A stretch of DNA of 32,000 nt, taken from assembly GCF_009734345.1 (NCBI RefSeq), contig NZ_CP032551.1, forward strand, positions 780,001 to 812,000, in the 5' to 3' direction. Under the pieces are notes generated by a model that did no database searches, was not told where the DNA came from, and was given only the letters and a program-made list of their open reading frames with translations. Below, piece after piece: positions 1 to 11,448 of this stretch. Positions within the stretch are counted from its first letter, which is position 1. Each line of letters begins with the position of its first letter. The stretch is from Pseudidiomarina andamanensis (GTDB lineage Bacteria > Pseudomonadota > Gammaproteobacteria > Enterobacterales > Alteromonadaceae). Position numbers and translations under genes: made by a program.

Positions 1-473
1 CCCCTGATATGCGCTGAGAAATTGCAGGTATCTGAAGCGATGCCCGGATAGGGCATTCGACCATCGTTCTCGAATCCATCAACAGGGTTTCGCAGGTGGG
101 TAGTTCGGGTGTTCGTATGCCGGATAATAAAATCCGATCCATCTGCAAATCCGGGGGTTGAACGAGCATATGCCCCGACCGTTGCCTTAAACAATAACTG
201 GTCTGGACGATAAGAAGCTTCTGCCTTGGCTCTTGGGACGACGCAAACCGTCAAGGTGCTTGCCTCGACCTGCTTGATAATTTCCGGGAAATCTATACCG
301 AGAACCGTATTCAGATCGTTGATCGCGTATCTGATATTTTGTTGGCTCCAATTGTGATGGGGATCATTCTTGAGTTTGTACAGGAAATCCGGATTTCCTG
401 GTTGACCCGCTCCATGAAAGTCGGCATGAAAATAGCCTGGCACATTTCGGTTCAAGAACTGGTTTGCTTCCAT
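1..473 (-). CDS. Hypothetical protein, N-terminal 157 codons only (runs off left edge); possibly phosphoribosyltransferase-like
   Basis: My own translation of the minus strand from ATG 473-471 stays open to position 3 (MEANQFLNRNVPGYFHADFHGAG...TVCVVPRAKAEASYRPDQLLF...FIIRHTNTRTTHLRN...PYPGIASDTCNF). It is absent from the ORF track because no stop lies in the window. It starts 11 nt after the HAD gene stop, so the two are probably co-transcribed. The PRTase idea rests only on remembered resemblance of the VPRAK / RHT..TTHL pattern; the diagnostic PRPP loop would lie off-window. Confidence 0.55.
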   Translation of the reverse strand, partial: MEANQFLNRNVPGYFHADFHGAGQPGNPDFLYKLKNDPHHNWSQQNIRYAINDLNTVLGIDFPEIIKQVEASTLTVCVVPRAKAEASYRPDQLLFKATVGAYARSTPGFADGSDFIIRHTNTRTTHLRNPVDGFENDGRMPYPGIASDTCNFSAHIR

Positions 474-484
474 TATGAATTTGT

Positions 485-1102
485 TCATCTTGTAATCCTG
501 CGTACATCTATTATCTGATCAATTCCAATGCCGCAAGCAATAGCTGACTCAATGGCCTTTTCATCATTCTCAAACACCAACATGGACATGCTTCCTTTCG
601 GAAGTTCAGCCATCAATTGCACGTACTTATCTCTTTGAGATTCAGCGTCTCTATAGATCTTCCGTGTGAACTTCTCGATAAGTCCGTGATGGTTGAGTAA
701 CATTTCCGCTCGACATCTGCGACTATTTGTGGCCAAAACAACTTCTTTCTCTTGGACGCGTGCAACTATTTCAATTAGTCGCGGGATGGCCTTTGTTTCT
801 GAAAGATATTTATGATATGAGCGCTCTTTAAGTAAGGCAATCTCTTCAATTTGTTTGTCAGTGATGCCCGGAATAATTTCTTCAAGTACTTCTCGCGTTA
901 TTCTGGTGCCCGGAGTGAAATCAATTTCTATTTGTGTAGATAGAACGAACATCACAGCATCTTTATACGCCAAAAAGTTGGCGTGATCGGAATCCACCAA
1001 GGTTCCGTCCAAATCAAATACGATAACTTCCGCTCGCTCAGCTTTGGCCAGCCATTCTTCACGTGCTTGATTTCCGTCAACCATGCTCCGCCTCATTCGC
1101 AT
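485..1102 (-). CDS. HAD-superfamily hydrolase (phosphatase-type, subfamily IA-like)
   Basis: 205-aa ORF with HAD motif I VIVFDLDGTLVDSD, motif II LATNS, a later Lys and the acidic motif FENDEKAI. The real start may be ATG 1084 (GAGG 6 nt upstream), because the first ATG (1102-1100) lies inside the attC R' core GTTATGC. Confidence 0.8.
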   Translation of the reverse strand: MRMRRSMVDGNQAREEWLAKAERAEVIVFDLDGTLVDSDHANFLAYKDAVMFVLSTQIEIDFTPGTRITREVLEEIIPGITDKQIEEIALLKERSYHKYLSETKAIPRLIEIVARVQEKEVVLATNSRRCRAEMLLNHHGLIEKFTRKIYRDAESQRDKYVQLMAELPKGSMSMLVFENDEKAIESAIACGIGIDQIIDVRRITR

Positions 1103-1200
1103 AACGCCGTTGTAACCGGCAAAAAATTGTTGGCTAAAATGTGAAGCGAAGCGTAACAGCCAACAAGTTTTTTGTCCGCGTTGACAACTTTGTTAGGCTC
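1099..1200 (-). mobile_element. Integron attC recombination site (102 nt)
   Basis: The minus strand reads GAGCCTAAC-AAA-GTTGTCAAC-GCGGAC-AAAAAAC-TTGTTGGCT-(22 nt loop)-AGCCAACAA-TTTTTT-GCCG-GTTACAAC-GGC-GTTATGC. R'' is GCCTAAC (RYYYAAC). R' is GTTATGC (one off GTTRRRY). The L box has one extra base in L'', a spacer is unpaired, and a long stem carries a second bulge. The site begins at the stop codon of the upstream gene. Confidence 0.8.
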
Positions 1201-2179
1201 TACATTTCGTATAAGCTCAAACCCATTGAAGCACCTATAGCGTACCAAACTCTCTGCCAGAGAACACGCTCAAGGTCATAACCAATGAATGATGTTTCCT
1301 CATTACCATGCCTAAGTAATTTCCCATTGGACAAGTATTTGAAATTAAAGGTTCCCAGTTGCTTATCACTTAGCTGTTCAGGAAGGACAGCACGAAGAGG
1401 TTTAAGATAAACAGGATCATCAGCAACTAAAATAAACTCATCAAATAAGTGCGAAAAACTTTCCATATGGTTACCTAACTCGAGTGTATACCATTCTTCA
1501 GAAACGGTATTTATCCTAATTTCACCTTTTTCATAATCCTTCGTTGAACCGTCAAGATGCTTTATCTCATGCCCATCTTCTGGTGGGTGGAAGACAAACG
1601 CAGTGATAAATGATTTTTCATGAAGCCACTCTATGGCATGAGGGATAAATTCATCAATTTCAACAGGCTTTAATAATCGATTTGGATGAAGCTCTTTAAA
1701 GAAACGTAAGGCCTTAGCTGTTTCTCTATAAAGAAAAGGATAGTCGATGTACATTACACGGTACTTAGCTGGTGCTCTTTGCATTCGTTCTTTGTATATT
1801 TCTCTAACTTCAGCAACGCATGATTTAGGGTTTCGGTTTATCTCTCGCCCTGTGAACCTTATAACGGCGTATCCAGCTCTTGAAAGGTAACGCTGCCGTA
1901 TGGCGTCTTTTTCTAACTGCTCTTTCGTTGAATGATAGTCATGCCCATCTAACTCAACTATTAGTCGAGCATCTTTCAATATAAAATCAACACGGAATCG
2001 CCCATGTTTCTCTTGGTCTCCGAACCAATGTTCACTTTCAATTGCACTTGCTAAGTCATCCAGCTCTTTACTAAATTCCTTCTCAATATATGACTGCCCT
2101 CTGTCTCTATACCAACTTGGAGGAGACTTAGGTTGACCTGGATACTTCATTGCTACCTCTATTTATGAGTTGAGCCTAA
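1105..2179 (-). mobile_element. Integron-type gene cassette carrying the DUF559-nuclease fusion gene
   Basis: The cassette 5' end GTTAGGCTC (2180->2172, minus strand) is the exact complement of GAGCCTAAC at the start of its own attC (1200->1192). This is expected for G|TT crossover insertion of a circular cassette. It holds a single ORF with a 29-nt leader and is AT-rich relative to core genes. Confidence 0.7.
1200..2150 (-). CDS. DUF559 / Vsr-like (PD-(D/E)XK type) endonuclease domain fused to an unassigned ~190-aa C-terminal domain
   Basis: 316-aa ORF. The N-terminal ~115 aa carry the DUF559 pattern RFRVDFIL..ARLIVELDGHDYH....EKDAIRQRYLSRAGYAVIRFTGREI. I recognise no family for residues ~125-316. 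Confidence 0.75.
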   Translation of the reverse strand: MKYPGQPKSPPSWYRDRGQSYIEKEFSKELDDLASAIESEHWFGDQEKHGRFRVDFILKDARLIVELDGHDYHSTKEQLEKDAIRQRYLSRAGYAVIRFTGREINRNPKSCVAEVREIYKERMQRAPAKYRVMYIDYPFLYRETAKALRFFKELHPNRLLKPVEIDEFIPHAIEWLHEKSFITAFVFHPPEDGHEIKHLDGSTKDYEKGEIRINTVSEEWYTLELGNHMESFSHLFDEFILVADDPVYLKPLRAVLPEQLSDKQLGTFNFKYLSNGKLLRHGNEETSFIGYDLERVLWQRVWYAIGASMGLSLYEM

Positions 2180-2622
2180 CATTTGTATATCGTGCGTGCG
2201 CATTTAGAAACTCGTTTAACTAACCGTTTTCGTTTCTTAACTTACTGATCCAGCAGGTATGTCTGACTTGAAAGGTTGCGAGTTGGCAAAGGCAATTTGA
2301 GCATGCTCAGTTACACTCTACCAATCGCACAATATCCAACTTTTATTTTTTGTTATGTAATTGACAGTAAACGACTTAAATAAACAACACAACAGCAATA
2401 CGCGCAATATTGCCGAAGTGAATGTGCCGTACATCGCTGGCGACACCATCACTTACTAATAACGCGACGGCTAGTCACTAGTTGCAGTAACCTGAAAGTC
2501 AAAAGGTCCGCTGTTCGCTCATTGCAGACCATTTATCAATCGTTTTAGCGATATTGTCCACATTGCCCTTGGCGCCGAATACTGACGCTCAACAAGGACG
2601 CACTCTACAAAATGAATGTGGC

Positions 2623-2850
2623 TTAATACACAATACCATTACTGCCATTTTGACACTTTTGGCACTTACGATGAAAAACATCGGTGCCATTTGCCCCATA
2701 AATATGGCCACATCCATCCTCCAAACATTCAAGCTTGTAAGCAATAGCATTGTGATCTGTGCCTTGAACTCCCCGAGTACCATGATTCTTTTGATTATTT
2801 CGGTTTATATAACCAATCTGCGTGCTTGTTGCTGTTCCGTTCTTCCACAT
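2623..2850 (-). CDS. Small four-cysteine zinc-ribbon protein (75 aa), function unknown
   Basis: A strong SD AAGGAG (2863->2858) lies 7 nt before ATG 2850. The Cys pairs CLEDGC and CQKC are typical of a zinc ribbon. Plus-strand ORF 2554-2943 is its low-complexity shadow. Confidence 0.6.
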   Translation of the reverse strand: MWKNGTATSTQIGYINRNNQKNHGTRGVQGTDHNAIAYKLECLEDGCGHIYGANGTDVFHRKCQKCQNGSNGIVY

Positions 2851-2875
2851 TGTTCGGCTCCTTATAAGATCATAA

Positions 2876-2892
2876 GCTCGAAACTTTCGAGC
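2876..2892. promoter_or_regulatory. Perfect palindrome GCTCGAAA-C-TTTCGAGC upstream of the zinc-ribbon gene (operator or hairpin)
   Basis: 8-bp arms seen directly. Its right half is part of an 11-bp direct repeat TTTCGAGCATT (2885-2895 and 2981-2991). Confidence 0.3.
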
Positions 2893-3044
2893 ATTAAACG
2901 CAAGCTTGATTCTAAGTCCATAACATCTAAAGAAACCAGATGAACATTATCTATTAGTAGTTTGCGTGTTGACGATACGTTTTCGAGCATTGCTTCTTCT
3001 AGGGCAGCTATTAATTGGCAAAAAGTCCCTATGCCTAGACGATC

Positions 3045-3467
3045 TTAGGTCCGCTCCTCGCTCATGCCGGTCAACGCATACATCACTGTCTCAATTTGTG
3101 CCCCATTCACCATATCGTCACCAAAGCTTGCACATAGCGCTTGGTCAAGTGCGGCCTCCATGACCATACCCTGTTGAATATGCTGTAGTACTTTTGCTGC
3201 AATTTCCTCATACTCATCTTGGCAATTGTTTTCTTTGCAGTACGTGTTCATCGGGTCAGTCTCAAATAGCGCGGCATTAATGGTCTCAACGCACATGCGC
3301 TGTAATTGACGCGATGGACGCGATCCGGTGTAGCCACGTTTATCAAGCTCGGCATGTAATGCATCAAATCGTGATTGACGGCTCTGCATTGCCGCAGAGT
3401 CTGCACACGGCAGTGTATGCAAGCGCATGAGTTGATGAATAATTTGGCAAATGGACGATGCGGTCAT
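3045..3467 (-). CDS. Hypothetical protein (140 aa)
   Basis: Long ORF with core-like composition, divergent from the cupin gene. No family recognised. Start uncertain (Met1, Met14 or Met27). Confidence 0.5.
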   Translation of the reverse strand: MTASSICQIIHQLMRLHTLPCADSAAMQSRQSRFDALHAELDKRGYTGSRPSRQLQRMCVETINAALFETDPMNTYCKENNCQDEYEEIAAKVLQHIQQGMVMEAALDQALCASFGDDMVNGAQIETVMYALTGMSEERT

Positions 3468-3612
3468 TACTTCTCTTTTTATTAATTATTTTTTAATATT
3501 TTTACAACATCAGAACTATACAGGATGTCAGCGACAGAACGTGTCGTGTATCTTCAAATTCGAGTTATTATTTCATTCCAAAGCAATTTCACAGTTCAAC
3601 AGGTACGAAAAC

Positions 3613-4068
3613 ATGCTATTGAAGAAGTCAGATATCGACGCGATGCCAGGTGAGCATAAAATCCACTTTCTCAATCCGAATGCACAACGACTGAATAAAT
3701 CGCTTGGCGATGCTGCAGGAATGAAGTCGCTCGGTATTCATTTAATTACGATACAACCTGGGCACGACTCCACTGAGCATCACTTTCATCATTTCGAAGA
3801 AGAAGCGATTTACGTGCTGTCAGGAGAAGGAATTGTGACCATTGGCCAACAACAGCATGCGATTGGCGCCGGCGACTTTATTGGTTGCCCGATTGATCAT
3901 GTACCGCATTCAATGCATGCAACAGGCTCTGAACCGCTACAGTGCTTAGTGGTTGGCAACAGGCTACAAGCTGATGTTAGCGACTATCCGAATGCCGGGA
4001 AGCGCCTCTATCGCTATCTGAGTGCGTGGGATTTGGTTGATATTAGCGACGCGACGAACGTCAAATAA
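3613..4068 (+). CDS. Cupin-domain protein
   Basis: Cupin motifs GHDSTEHHFHHFEEEAIYVLSGEG...IGAGDF...PHSM. I chose the internal ATG 3613 (MLLKKSDID) because the 54-codon upstream extension is AT-rich, low-complexity and overlaps the divergent gene. Confidence 0.75.
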   Translation: MLLKKSDIDAMPGEHKIHFLNPNAQRLNKSLGDAAGMKSLGIHLITIQPGHDSTEHHFHHFEEEAIYVLSGEGIVTIGQQQHAIGAGDFIGCPIDHVPHSMHATGSEPLQCLVVGNRLQADVSDYPNAGKRLYRYLSAWDLVDISDATNVK

Positions 4069-4100
4069 GAGGGGTGCAGTCCAAGGACTGCCCCCCTCTT
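4069..4100. repeat. GC-rich palindromic repeat, copy 1 (likely bidirectional terminator)
   Basis: GAGGGGTGCAGTCC-AA-GGACTGCCCCCCTC with an A-rich left flank and T-rich right flank. It lies exactly between the convergent cupin and usp stops. Confidence 0.7.
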
Positions 4101-4958
4101 TTACCTAAGTACGAGGGTTGAGGTGCGGCTCTCTTTCAGCATGGCCATGGTGGTACTACCTACCAAGAATTGGCGAATGCGCGAGTGGCCGAATGCGCCC
4201 ATGACCATGAGGTCAATGTCATGTTCGGTTTGATACTGGTGCAAGGTGGCTTCCACGTCGCCGGCACGCAGCGCGACGTGCACTTCGTGACCGCCTTCAA
4301 TCAGAACCTTTTCCGCCCACTTGAGTTTTTCCCAGTTGTTCGCGGTGTCAGCATCAACCATCACCACATGCATCGGCATGCCGTTAAACAATGGGCTTTG
4401 CGCGAGCATTTCAACACCCTTCTCAGTGGTTTTACTGCCATCGAAAGCGAGCATGGCCGAGCGCGGCTCGTTGAACGTGTCTGGTGTTAATAATAGCGGG
4501 CGATGAACCGTGCGAATCACGGTTTCCAACTGGCTTCCTACTTGATGCAGCTGATTCGCCGATGCTTCGCCATGCAGACCTAACACTGCAAGACGCACAT
4601 CACCTTCTAGTGCTAATAAATTTTCGGCAAGCTCGCCGTGGCGCTGACGCTGTGTCACGTCGCTCACACCAAGCTTCTTCAATTTCTCATCAGCGAGTTG
4701 CAACAACACATGACCGTGCTCCAACGCTACCTTGGCGCGCTGGGCATCCAATTCAGCAAGTTGCTCAAGCAAATGTTCACGCGTACCCAAACCAATATTA
4801 CCGGAAAGCTCGGTTTCCGCCTGCGATTTCAGCTCATCTAAAACATGTAATAACATCACTGGCGCAGCCAATTGCTTCGCCGCCCATGCGGAATATTCGC
4901 ACACGGCTGTGTTGCGCGAAGCGCCATCAATACAGCTAACTACGTAAGACATAATCAT
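4101..4958 (-). CDS. Universal stress protein, tandem USP domains
   Basis: 285 aa forming two USP-like halves (...LLHVLD...; ...MVMGAFGHSRIRQFLVGSTT..., the ATP-binding G-2x-G-9x-G(S/T)-like motif). Adjacent to a SulP transporter. Confidence 0.75.
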   Translation of the reverse strand: MIMSYVVSCIDGASRNTAVCEYSAWAAKQLAAPVMLLHVLDELKSQAETELSGNIGLGTREHLLEQLAELDAQRAKVALEHGHVLLQLADEKLKKLGVSDVTQRQRHGELAENLLALEGDVRLAVLGLHGEASANQLHQVGSQLETVIRTVHRPLLLTPDTFNEPRSAMLAFDGSKTTEKGVEMLAQSPLFNGMPMHVVMVDADTANNWEKLKWAEKVLIEGGHEVHVALRAGDVEATLHQYQTEHDIDLMVMGAFGHSRIRQFLVGSTTMAMLKESRTSTLVLR

Positions 4959-7940: not shown

Positions 7941-7953
7941 CGATCACTGCAAA

Positions 7954-7985
7954 GGAGGGGTGCAGTCCAAGGACTGCACCCCTCC
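7954..7985. repeat. GC-rich palindromic repeat, copy 2
   Basis: GGAGGGGTGCAGTCC-AA-GGACTGCACCCCTCC, perfect 15-nt arms, downstream of the OmpW-family gene. Confidence 0.75.
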
Positions 7986-8008
7986 TCTTTCGTCACTATT
8001 TTCTAAGC

Positions 8009-8836: not shown

Positions 8837-8839
8837 CGA

Positions 8840-8871
8840 GGAGGGGTGCAGTCCTAGGACTGCACCCCTCC
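8840..8871. repeat. GC-rich palindromic repeat, copy 3 (centre CCTAGG)
   Basis: GGAGGGGTGCAGTCC-TA-GGACTGCACCCCTCC, lying in a divergent intergenic region. In this copy it cannot simply be a terminator. Confidence 0.75.
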
Positions 8872-8912
8872 TTTCTCTATAATCAATGGAACCAAACAAG
8901 AGGAAATGCGAA

Positions 8913-9164
8913 ATGAAACTGACTGTCGATATCAGCAAATATCCGTTAGCTGAGAATTACAAAGACCCAATTCGCGAGTTTATTGATGAATTGGAAAAAC
9001 ACCCTAACATTCACATCATCACCAATACGCTCAGCACGCAGGTGTTTGGTGATTACGATGACGTGATGGAAGCCATACAGGCTTGTATTAAATGGTCATT
9101 CAATAAATACGGCAAAGTCGTATTCGTATGTAAGTTCCTTCACGGCGATCTTCGCCCAGAATAA
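8913..9164 (+). CDS. YkoF/MTH1187-like small ligand-binding protein (single domain)
   Basis: 83 aa starting MKLTVDISKYPLAENY...VMEAIQACI...VVFVCKFLHG, which resembles the YkoF/DUF77 pattern. ATG 8913 was chosen because GAGGAA lies ~8 nt upstream. Confidence 0.5.
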   Translation: MKLTVDISKYPLAENYKDPIREFIDELEKHPNIHIITNTLSTQVFGDYDDVMEAIQACIKWSFNKYGKVVFVCKFLHGDLRPE

Positions 9165-9195
9165 GAGACGTGCAGTCCAAGGACTGCACCCCACC
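9165..9195. repeat. GC-rich palindromic repeat, copy 4 (left arm degenerate)
   Basis: GAGACGTGCAGTCC-AA-GGACTGCACCCCACC, immediately after the stop codon. Confidence 0.65.
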
Positions 9196-9297
9196 TTTCT
9201 CAATCACAATATCTTACAAATCAGTCTATTGCCTAGACGTCGTATCCCCACATAAACTGCAATCGAAGCTCCCCAAAATGACAACAAGGAAAATCTC

Positions 9298-9956: not shown

Positions 9957-10005
9957 CTGCCGCATGTTAAACTGGGTGCATTGACTCAACAACAAGGTTG
10001 AAAAC

Positions 10006-11448
10006 ATGCCTTTTAGTCCACTTCCTTTTAACCCAGAACACAGCTACCAAGATTTATCTGACCAGTTATTCGCACCATGCGAAGCAACGCCAGTGCGCGC
10101 GCCGCAGTGGATAGCGTTTAACGAAGACTTGGCAGAACAGTTGCAGATTCCACAAGAACTATGGGCAACGGACGAAGGTTTGCAGGTATTTTCGGGTAAC
10201 CAAACACCTGAATGGGCAACACCGGCAGCTCTTGCTTACGCTGGGCATCAATTTGCCAATTTTGTACCACAGCTTGGCGATGGTCGAGCACTGTTACTCA
10301 CAGAAGTACTCGACAAGCACAATCAGCGCTTCGACATTCAGCTCAAAGGTTCAGGCCGCACGCCATATTCACGCGGCGGTGACGGTCGCTCGCCTATTGG
10401 CCCAGTACTCCGTGAATACCTAGTCAGCGAAGCCATGCACAAACTCAATGTGCCGACCACACGGGCATTAGCTGCGGTGGCAACCGGTGAATGGGTGCAA
10501 CGCGAAACCGCGCAGCCCGGCGCCATTCTCACGCGCGTTGCTAAAAGTCATCTAAGAGTTGGCACCGCGCAGTATGTGTTGCATCTACGAGATTACAACC
10601 TGCTCAAGCGCTTCGCCGATTACGTCATTGACCGTCATTATCCTGAACTCAACAATAGCGAAGCGCCCTACCTTGCCTTACTGGAGAGCGTTCAGCTCCG
10701 ACAAGCACAGCTCATCGCCAAATGGATGAGCCTTGGTTTCATTCATGGCGTGATGAACACCGACAATATGACCCTTAGCGGCGAAACCATTGATTATGGC
10801 CCATGTGCGTTCATGGAAGCCTATGAACCCGCCACCAAATTCAGTTTTATTGACAAGCGCGGACGCTACGCCTATCAAAACCAACCTGCGATTGGCTTGT
10901 GGAATATCGCTCGATTTGCCGAAACATTACTGCCGCTCATAGATGACGATCCTGACAAAGCGGTCGCGCAAGCTACCACGACCATTGAAACTTTCCAAGC
11001 GACCTACGAAGACTTTTATTGGAAAGAAATGAGTCGCAAGATCGGCGTTAGCGACATCAATACCGCAAAACCACTTATCGAACGCTATTTAAACCTCATG
11101 CAAGCGCAGCAAATCGACTTCACTCAAGCGTTCCGCTTTTTAGGTGACCAAACGCCAGAGCGCGCGCAACGCCTATTCGAAAATAGCGATTCATGGCAAC
11201 TTTGGTTCAACGACTGGCAAGAGGCGACTGATAACAGTCAACTTCATCAAGTGAACCCAGCATATATTCCGCGTAATCACTTAATCGAACAAGCCATTCA
11301 AACGGCTACGAATCACGGCGATTTAACTATTTTTAACCGTTTGCAAACCATGCTTGCTCGCCCTTTTATCGAACGCGACGAATTCAATGATTGGTTTGAA
11401 CCGGCGAAATCTGAGGAGCGAATTACGCAAACCTTCTGTGGTACTTGA
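10006..11448 (+). CDS. selO: Protein adenylyltransferase (AMPylase) SelO/YdiU
   Basis: 480 aa with SelO pseudokinase-fold hallmarks: GDGRALLL, QLKGSGRTPYSRGGDGR, REYLVSEAMH.L.VPTTRALA, HGVMNTDNM...ETIDYGP. Confidence 0.9.
   Translation: MPFSPLPFNPEHSYQDLSDQLFAPCEATPVRAPQWIAFNEDLAEQLQIPQELWATDEGLQVFSGNQTPEWATPAALAYAGHQFANFVPQLGDGRALLLTEVLDKHNQRFDIQLKGSGRTPYSRGGDGRSPIGPVLREYLVSEAMHKLNVPTTRALAAVATGEWVQRETAQPGAILTRVAKSHLRVGTAQYVLHLRDYNLLKRFADYVIDRHYPELNNSEAPYLALLESVQLRQAQLIAKWMSLGFIHGVMNTDNMTLSGETIDYGPCAFMEAYEPATKFSFIDKRGRYAYQNQPAIGLWNIARFAETLLPLIDDDPDKAVAQATTTIETFQATYEDFYWKEMSRKIGVSDINTAKPLIERYLNLMQAQQIDFTQAFRFLGDQTPERAQRLFENSDSWQLWFNDWQEATDNSQLHQVNPAYIPRNHLIEQAIQTATNHGDLTIFNRLQTMLARPFIERDEFNDWFEPAKSEERITQTFCGT

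Follow-up and report, generated by a model that had tools for sequence, protein, structure and literature searches.

Introduction

The attC sites of integrons are described as 57-141 nt long, with a central spacer that stays unpaired, extrahelical bases, a terminal structure that varies and a bottom strand that folds more stably than the top strand (PMC5371416). Where at least two of them lie at most 4 kb apart on the same strand and no integron-integrase is nearby, IntegronFinder defines a clustered set of attC sites without an integron-integrase (CALIN); such clusters are abundant, and 95% have no intI remnant nearby (PMC4889954). We analyzed a 32,000-nt stretch of DNA from Pseudidiomarina andamanensis (the window), at the left end of which an earlier note, made from the sequence letters alone, had placed an integron-type cassette array. 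We found a locus best read as a short CALIN array behind a conserved leader, whose cassettes would have arrived by IntI-type insertion with the integrase supplied in trans or since lost. We give this reading a probability of roughly 80%.

On the minus strand, the order of the array is a leader of about 350 nt, cassette 1 with attC1, cassette 2 with attC2, cassette 3 with a decayed attC3, and a terminal sequence. The parts on which the argument depends most are the following.

2178-2530, minus strand: leader, the attI-like array head, about 350 nt and non-coding, ending ...ATATACAAATG|TT, with the putative crossover between 2180 and 2179
1200-2150, minus strand: gene of cassette 1, 316 aa, with an N-terminal DUF559/MTES_1575 restriction-endonuclease-like domain (Pfam) and an uncharacterised C-terminal half
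1105-2179, minus strand: recombination unit of cassette 1, beginning with the TT that follows G 2180 of the leader and ending with G 1105 of R'
1099-1198, minus strand: attC1, the 100-nt attC site of cassette 1, identified by sequence reading, folds and a covariance model

Results

The attC site of cassette 1

The TAG stop of the 316-aa gene (1202-1200) stands directly before attC1, whose minus-strand letters are GCCTAAC-AAA-GTTGT[C]AAC[G]CGG[A]CAAAAAA[C]TTGTTGGCT-(22 nt)-AGCCAACAATTTTTTGCCGGTTACAAC-GGC-GTTATGC, with bulged bases in brackets. The site consists of R'' (GCCTAAC, 1198-1192), the spacer AAA, an interrupted 26-bp stem with a 22-nt loop, the spacer GGC, and R' (GTTATGC, 1105-1099). 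The inner 15-nt arms (1121-1135 and 1158-1172) were 93% complementary. R'' conforms to RYYYAAC and R' is one base off GTTRRRY, with the invariant AAC...GTT kept. Because position 5 of R' is a deviating T, attC1 was missed by a strict RYYYAAC/GTTRRRY pattern; a relaxed scan returned attC1 and attC2, the next site of the array, as the two best candidates. The four bulged bases of attC1 all lie on the R''/L'' arm, three of them at bulge columns of the family alignment, and this confinement indicated that the bottom strand would be the recombinogenic one. Folded as single-stranded DNA, the bottom (plus) strand reached -23.7 kcal/mol (z = -4.7, equalled by 0 of 200 shuffles) and the top strand -21.3 kcal/mol (z = -3.2), making the bottom strand 2.4 kcal/mol more stable. 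All of the literature hallmarks listed above were thus found in attC1. The left 3 kb of the window had a GC content of 0.40-0.42, versus 0.45-0.53 in the adjoining DNA. The earlier note had read the attC architecture behind the 316-aa gene correctly, and its statement that the left segment is more AT-rich was borne out; on the bulges, it was right to place them on one arm and wrong to count two.

Since Rfam holds no attC family, we made our own covariance model (R1). Searched against Rfam itself, the window had no match at the gathering thresholds, and the surroundings of the locus gave noise-level matches only (E up to 10). R1 was trained on 20 attC sites from other loci, namely metagenome arrays, P. 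donghaiensis, and an Atopomonas array adjoining a true IntI homologue; both attC sites of the source array and their nearest twins were excluded. In the R1 alignment 84% of cells were paired and compensatory changes occurred in 19 of 23 pairs, as good a result being reached by 0 of 500 shuffles; when the partner columns were slid, pairing fell to about 30%. Run with filters off, R1 gave attC1 a score of 49.8 bits (E 9e-10, E-values of this model being rough) in a match that spans the entire model, and this was its sole match at E<1 in the window. The match lies within 1099-1200, where the earlier note had placed its site. As a positive control, R1 recognised about 60 co-oriented attC sites of about 126 nt downstream of a 320-aa IntI in three Vibrio parahaemolyticus superintegron loci (L116-L118), which were absent from the training set, so that the model detects the attC sites of complete Vibrio integrons too.

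The array beyond the left edge of the window

An exact-protein look-up yielded 20.6 kb of the source contig (GCA_054779515.1, 1.78 Mb), referred to here as L002, in which window position x corresponds to 11085 - x. The array continued there past the left edge, as had been expected, with attC2, a 262-aa gene and a decayed attC3.

1-1104, minus strand: start of cassette 2, with a HAD hydrolase gene (485-1084) and, at 1-488, the ShosT N-terminus (162 aa), running off the left edge
L002 12228-12299: attC2, 72 nt, GCATAAC-AAG-...-GGC-GTTATGC, with a fold of -21.3 kcal/mol and an R1 score of 78.5 bits

Cassette 2 carries genes for a HAD hydrolase (199 aa), ShosT (207 aa) and the DprA-like ShosA (324 aa), tightly packed with no attC between them and extending off the window to cover L002 10001-12211. 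The stop codon of the HAD gene overlaps the ShosT start (ATGA). PADLOC assigned the adjacent genes to ShosT (2.8e-7, a weak match) and ShosA (7.8e-49), and the Pfam family DNA_processg_A was matched at 9e-37. The ShosT-ShosA pair is a predicted Shosta anti-phage system. Shosta (ShosT/ShosA) is reportedly the same as the PsyrTA toxin-antitoxin, and its description is said to go back to Millman et al. in 2022 and Rousset et al. in 2022.

The spacing between attC1 and attC2 was 2.3 kb, with the attC3 remnant 0.85 kb further on. Cassette 3 consists of the 262-aa gene and this remnant, which keeps R'' (GCATAAC) and the inner stem (R1 19.1 bits, model positions 21-61) and has its R' mutated to GTCAACG. 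The terminal sequence of the source array, GT(T/C)AACGTCCGCTCCTGGCAC..GC.GAC, lies at L002 13196-13226, about 2 kb past the window. About 20 related arrays share one ending, in which the last R' (GTTAACG) is followed by TCCGCTCCTGGCAC..GCGGAC; beyond it the flank diverges or the next leader starts. The conserved tail of the arrays is about 30 nt long.

Cassette boundaries

The sequence GTTAGGCTC at 2180-2172 lies 21 nt ahead of the ATG at 2150. Its first part, the 5' boundary GTTAGGC (2180-2174), is complementary to the R'' of the same cassette at 7/7 positions, or 12/13 when extended, and the downstream R', GTTATGC, is complementary to that R'' at 6/7, with one mismatch. The three cassettes of the array compare as follows.

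Cassette 1: 5' boundary GTTAGGC, own R'' GCCTAAC
Cassette 2: 5' boundary GTTATGC, own R'' GCATAAC
Cassette 3: 5' boundary GTTATGC, own R'' GCATAAC

Taken alone, the inverted match of 9-13 nt between 2180 and 1200 was at chance level, ranking 14 among 67 inverted pairs in 4 kb. It gains weight from its position, and because the same rule is common to related cassettes. Among the 62 cassettes delimited by R1 matches in related arrays, R'' was perfectly complemented (7/7) by the cassette's own 5' boundary in 48 and by the next boundary in 10; the own boundary was the better match in 47 and the worse in 3. Judged from these comparisons, own-boundary complementarity is what circular cassettes leave behind when they insert by G|TT crossover. 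The earlier note had taken the boundary at 2180 for such a signature; the boundary rule and the end of leader homology at the same point, described below, both agree with it.

These results also bear on a rival explanation, in which an intrinsic terminator or a REP-like (repetitive extragenic palindromic) sequence forms the hairpin at 1099-1198 and the 9-nt complement at 2180 is a coincidence. The hairpin stands right behind a stop codon, the region has many inverted repeats of 9-13 nt, and true REP-like palindromes follow other genes of this genome. However, no T-run follows the stem and a terminator scan did not call the hairpin, its bulges are confined to one arm, and the attC model matched it over its full length. 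The same family of sites, moreover, stands behind unrelated genes with compensatory changes, and the boundary rule holds for most related cassettes. The terminator or REP-like explanation is thereby effectively refuted.

A conserved leader at the head of the array

The leader was 88% identical to P. donghaiensis sequence (L004 15467-15812), with homology ending at GTT; beyond that point P. donghaiensis has another cassette and, after it, three or more homogeneous attC sites of about 115 nt. A 19-mer search with the leader matched 30 metagenome contigs, 29 of which carried it, and the leader heads differing arrays in dozens of marine contigs. Full and partial copies, second copies included, totalled 33, of which 28 were full-length. 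In all 28 the homology ended at ...CAAATG|TT and was followed by complete divergence, with 26 distinct continuations. Even among leader pairs 95-100% identical, 13 of 15 were followed by unrelated first cassettes. At the other end, the 5' edge of the leader was identical in about 28 copies despite unrelated upstream flanks. The attC matches in the leader loci lay downstream of and co-oriented with a leader copy in 64 of 65 cases, the remaining one ending an array that abuts the next leader. The arrays so headed hold 1-6 cassettes. The recurrence of the leader as an array head had escaped the earlier note, as had the Shosta cassette and the shortness of an array with a conserved terminal sequence.

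The leader contains a 44-aa open reading frame (ORF) and gave no coding signal: there was no codon periodicity, and indels were not multiples of three. A reading of the leader as an attC site or other single-stranded DNA hairpin was rejected (z = +1.2), and so was a structured RNA, with an RNAalifold covariation term of -0.32, compensatory changes in 4 of 73 pairs and no Rfam match. A dif-like reading of the 3' end (TGCGCA...TATACA...ATGTTA), made by eye, was dropped as its arms are 3 nt wider than those of dif. No conserved neighbouring protein gene was found beside the leader copies, and the leader was found neither in viral contigs nor in plasmids. At 2393-2415 (minus strand), in its 5' third, the leader has a hairpin that resembles a terminator and runs into a T-rich stretch (CGGCAATATTGCGCGTATTGCTG TTGTGTTGTT); this element is conserved among copies. 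In Shewanella oncorhynchi, the sequence AAACGCGCATGCACACTAATAAAATGTAGGC (L114 9940-9975), upstream of the homologue of the cassette 1 gene, resembles AAATGCGCACGCACGATATACAAATGTTAGGC, the last 30 nt of the leader; diverged relatives of the leader may exist outside Idiomarinaceae.

Among many cassettes and in one orientation, the last G|TT of the leader behaves, as far as sequence comparison can tell, like an attI: a single double-stranded site used over and over. An attI would also adjoin intI and carry a Pc promoter; no intI was found next to the leader, and no sigma-70-like promoter was called in it. In the mechanism we propose, each cassette would have entered as a circle through an IntI-type tyrosine recombinase, whose cuts would have fallen in the bottom strand of attC, in its folded form, and in the double-stranded G|TT at the leader end; with circles inserted at its terminal G|TT, the leader would act as an attI-type site. 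The integrase would be supplied in trans, from elsewhere in the genome or transiently, or would have been lost. We think it more likely than not that the leader works as a platform of attI type for an integrase supplied in trans.

The leader also showed relations to the array tail. Immediately before about one third of its copies stood the array-terminal sequence (GTTAACGTCCGC..TGGCAC..GA), intact or decayed, with examples at L086 2777-2815, L091 6682-6720 and L099 2152-2190 and degenerate forms in about seven others. Both tail and leader contain a GTCCGCT...AGCGGAC palindrome. The tail and the head may form one unit, and an empty unit would read leader...CAAATGTTAACGTCCGC. Two copies per contig occurred in direct (L086, L099) or divergent (L087, L101) orientation.

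Small tyrosine recombinases of about 190 aa, having only the PF00589 catalytic domain, were encoded near the leader at L096 5758-6381 (plus), L088 5119-5772 (plus) and L092 8667-9227 (minus). The L096 gene lies 18 nt from the leader 5' end and is divergent from it like intI; those of L088 and L092 lie 2.6 kb upstream and are co-oriented.

A non-autonomous mobile unit, made of leader, cassettes and right end and moved by some other recombinase such as these, would explain why near-identical leaders sit amid different flanks on both sides, sometimes twice on a contig in direct or divergent orientation, and why a similar palindrome occurs at both ends. The PF00589-only genes adjoining or near the leader also fit it. 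They were present in only 3 of about 30 loci, however, and belong to two families with 30% mutual identity. The 5' palindrome of the leader was 73% paired, showed no covariation and had a poorly conserved outer arm; no target duplication was seen, and the cassettes bear the canonical IntI signature. We consider movement by such a recombinase quite improbable as the explanation of the locus.

Integrase search and class of the array

No integrase was found by Pfam among all sizeable ORFs of the window and L002, and tblastn with IntI1 and a three-sequence IntI profile found neither integrase nor remnant in the same DNA, which covers 30 kb on the expected side and 7.4 kb on the other. The IntI1 query proved a working probe, matching the IntI homologues of two other loci, L068 and L016, at 60% and 57% identity. 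The earlier note had seen no intI on the expected (right) side and had suggested a CALIN-type array; no intI lay within 30 kb, and the label fits. attC1 and attC2 are 2.3 kb apart with no intI in the window or L002, and we call the array a CALIN because its attC sites are clustered without nearby intI. It is not a complete integron, in which intI adjoins the array head, and no intI stood beside any of the 33 leader copies. A sedentary chromosomal integron would have more than 10-20 cassettes and homogeneous species-specific attC sites; here there were three cassettes, and the attC sites of 100 and 72 nt share little sequence. A genuine attC site within a CALIN-type cassette array is almost certainly present.

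The absence of intI could also mean that the array is a fossil, that is, a chromosomal integron that lost intI by deletion or rearrangement, with the leader as leftover attI and promoter and the cassettes static. Integrase loss is an accepted origin of CALINs (PMC4889954), no intI is nearby, and attC3 has decayed, with a mutated R'. Against this, the leader has the same 5' edge in about 28 copies with unrelated flanks, and independent deletions would not share one base. Neither IntI nor a remnant was found, by tblastn or profile, in the 12 leader loci that have at least 4.7 kb of upstream sequence. Moreover, identical leaders with different first cassettes point to recent turnover, contrary to a fossil. 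We therefore regard a fossil array as unlikely.

Relatives of cassette 1

The cassette 1 protein had 242 homologues of equal length at 65-99% identity, in genera including Vibrio, Shewanella, Pseudoalteromonas, Citrobacter, Pseudomonas, Xanthomonas and Sphingomonas. A homologue lay between attC sites in the three V. parahaemolyticus superintegrons, at differing array positions. The Shewanella oncorhynchi homologue stands at the head of a CALIN with two attC sites, the first of which shares 90% identity with attC2. In a genome labelled Pseudoalteromonas haloplanktis (L113), a copy of cassette 1 with 99% nucleotide identity lies between cvfB and pyrF (9970-10958). Its homology begins at the GTT of GTTAGGC and stops within R'' (GAGCCTAA|), and it has neither leader nor attC hairpin. 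The cut inside R'' suggests that excision or insertion took an unusual course at this box. With this copy starting at the predicted GTT and P. tainanensis lacking the whole island (see below), presence/absence polymorphism exists where the earlier note had proposed to look for it, at 2179/2180.

The same copy is preceded by ...AAGCTG|TT and is leaderless, as would be expected if an integrase had inserted the cassette off-target. Integrases do insert cassettes at GWT sites (attG, 5'-GWT-3') genome-wide, yielding single attC sites lacking integron-integrase (SALIN) and small CALIN elements (bioRxiv 10.1101/2022.09.11.507474). Applied to the source array, off-target insertion would make its upstream sequence an arbitrary secondary site with no dedicated role. 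However, the insertion point there coincides with the final base of an element of 350 nt kept in 33 copies, and at least 26 cassettes have entered at the same G|TT, unlike insertion at random GWT motifs. This makes an arbitrary attG site very unlikely at the window locus.

The variable island and its surroundings

The photolyase gene neighbouring the array showed 92% identity to its P. donghaiensis counterpart and 88% to its P. tainanensis counterpart. In P. tainanensis the Usp and photolyase genes are adjacent, and a 6.4-kb island (L002 7020-13431, that is, window 1-4065 plus the off-window part) is absent, as determined by blastn and alignment of the junction. Upstream of the leader the island holds one further segment.

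2531-4065, no strand assigned: island part upstream of the leader, with a 75-aa ORF (2623-2850, minus), a 140-aa ORF (3045-3467, minus) and a cupin gene (3613-4068, plus)

The attC scans found no attC sites in 2531-4065. A 19-nt direct repeat (2504-2522 and 3047-3065, 17/19 identical) pairs ATGAGCGAACAGCGGACCT at the leader 5' end with ATGAGCGAGGAGCGGACCT in the last codons of the 140-aa ORF, and the segment with the 75-aa ORF sits between the two copies. A palindromic REP-like repeat of about 35 nt (...GGCAGTCCTTGGACTGC...) occurs 3' of several genes, at window positions of about 4063-4102, 7951-7992, 8838-8877 and 9162-9201 (L002 6983-7022, 3093-3134, 2208-2247 and 1884-1923), and was found in P. 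tainanensis too; the island's left edge is marked by one copy. In its remaining part the window encodes core metabolism, including a prp/acnD cluster, transporters and c-di-GMP enzymes.

Among 80 loci retrieved by way of a photolyase homologue, two, from a Burkholderiales metagenome-assembled genome (L068 8887-9849) and from Atopomonas hussainii (L016 2175-3116), carry true IntI homologues within 10 kb of the photolyase gene, in L068 immediately upstream of it. The association may be fortuitous, or integrons may settle repeatedly near the photolyase gene.

Discussion

The reading of the locus as a leader-headed CALIN array filled by IntI-type insertion rests on attC1, the boundary rule, the lack of a nearby intI, the missing island in P. 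tainanensis and the recurrent leader. Several observations weigh against it. The covariance model is our own build and not that of IntegronFinder; the core boxes of attC1 and attC2 carry single-base deviations from GTTRRRY/RYYYAAC, so that a strict pattern missed both; and attC3 is without a proper R'. Leader copies occur inside arrays or doubled on one contig, unlike classical attI. No sigma-70 promoter was called in the leader, the leader showed no similarity to the V. parahaemolyticus attI region, and neither tblastn nor the profile found IntI in about 210 kb of leader-bearing metagenome loci.

Near-identical heads with unrelated first cassettes argue for dedicated integration platforms working without an adjacent integrase. 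One possible generalisation, which we put forward tentatively, is that Idiomarinaceae, and perhaps other Alteromonadales, have a 'distributed integron', with several integrase-less platforms per genome and one integrase acting in trans. Each platform would consist of the leader of about 350 nt and the right end of about 30 nt, would gather its own short array including defence systems, and may itself be mobile. If this were true, it would provide a concrete origin for many CALINs; if the leader were only a relic, the locus would be an ordinary, well-documented CALIN. The HAD-ShosT-ShosA unit and the widely travelled gene for a DUF559 nuclease-like protein extend the list of defence-type functions among integron cassettes.

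Cassette 2 resembles Shosta in its adjacent genes for PRTase-like (phosphoribosyltransferase-like) ShosT and DprA-like ShosA. It is unlike Shosta in that a HAD-family hydrolase gene precedes them within the cassette, overlapping the ShosT start, and in the weakness of the ShosT match.

We searched the literature on integrons in Idiomarina or Pseudidiomarina and found nothing relevant. Compared with CALINs as defined in 2016 (PMC4889954), the source array is similar in having two or more attC sites in one orientation within 4 kb, no nearby intI, a small number of cassettes, attC sites that are heterogeneous (100 and 72 nt), and cargo other than resistance genes. CALINs are defined by attC alone, whereas the source array has a recurrent 350-nt head and a conserved tail of about 30 nt; no description of such a head or tail was found in the literature searched on CALINs. 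The V. parahaemolyticus superintegron also has a non-coding region of 200-350 nt ending in G|TT, cassettes in one orientation, homology between strains that stops at GTT, and a homologue of the DUF559 gene among its cassettes. It differs in having intI divergent beside attI, a single attI, and tens of cassettes with homogeneous attC sites of about 126 nt, whereas the leader loci have no intI, can carry several leaders per contig, hold 1-6 cassettes, and have a leader unlike the Vibrio attI. The attG/SALIN insertions of Loot et al. (bioRxiv 10.1101/2022.09.11.507474) likewise place cassettes outside a classical integron by G|TT crossover with the integrase in trans; attG sites, however, are short, scattered GWT motifs, and the leader is one long conserved site used repeatedly. 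The leader is unlike any described attI in lacking an adjoining integrase, in having sharp conserved edges on both sides, and in recurring within genomes. Together, the attC site and the cassette array are of an already known kind, and the integrase-less attI-like leader and its tail may be a new variant of integron organisation.

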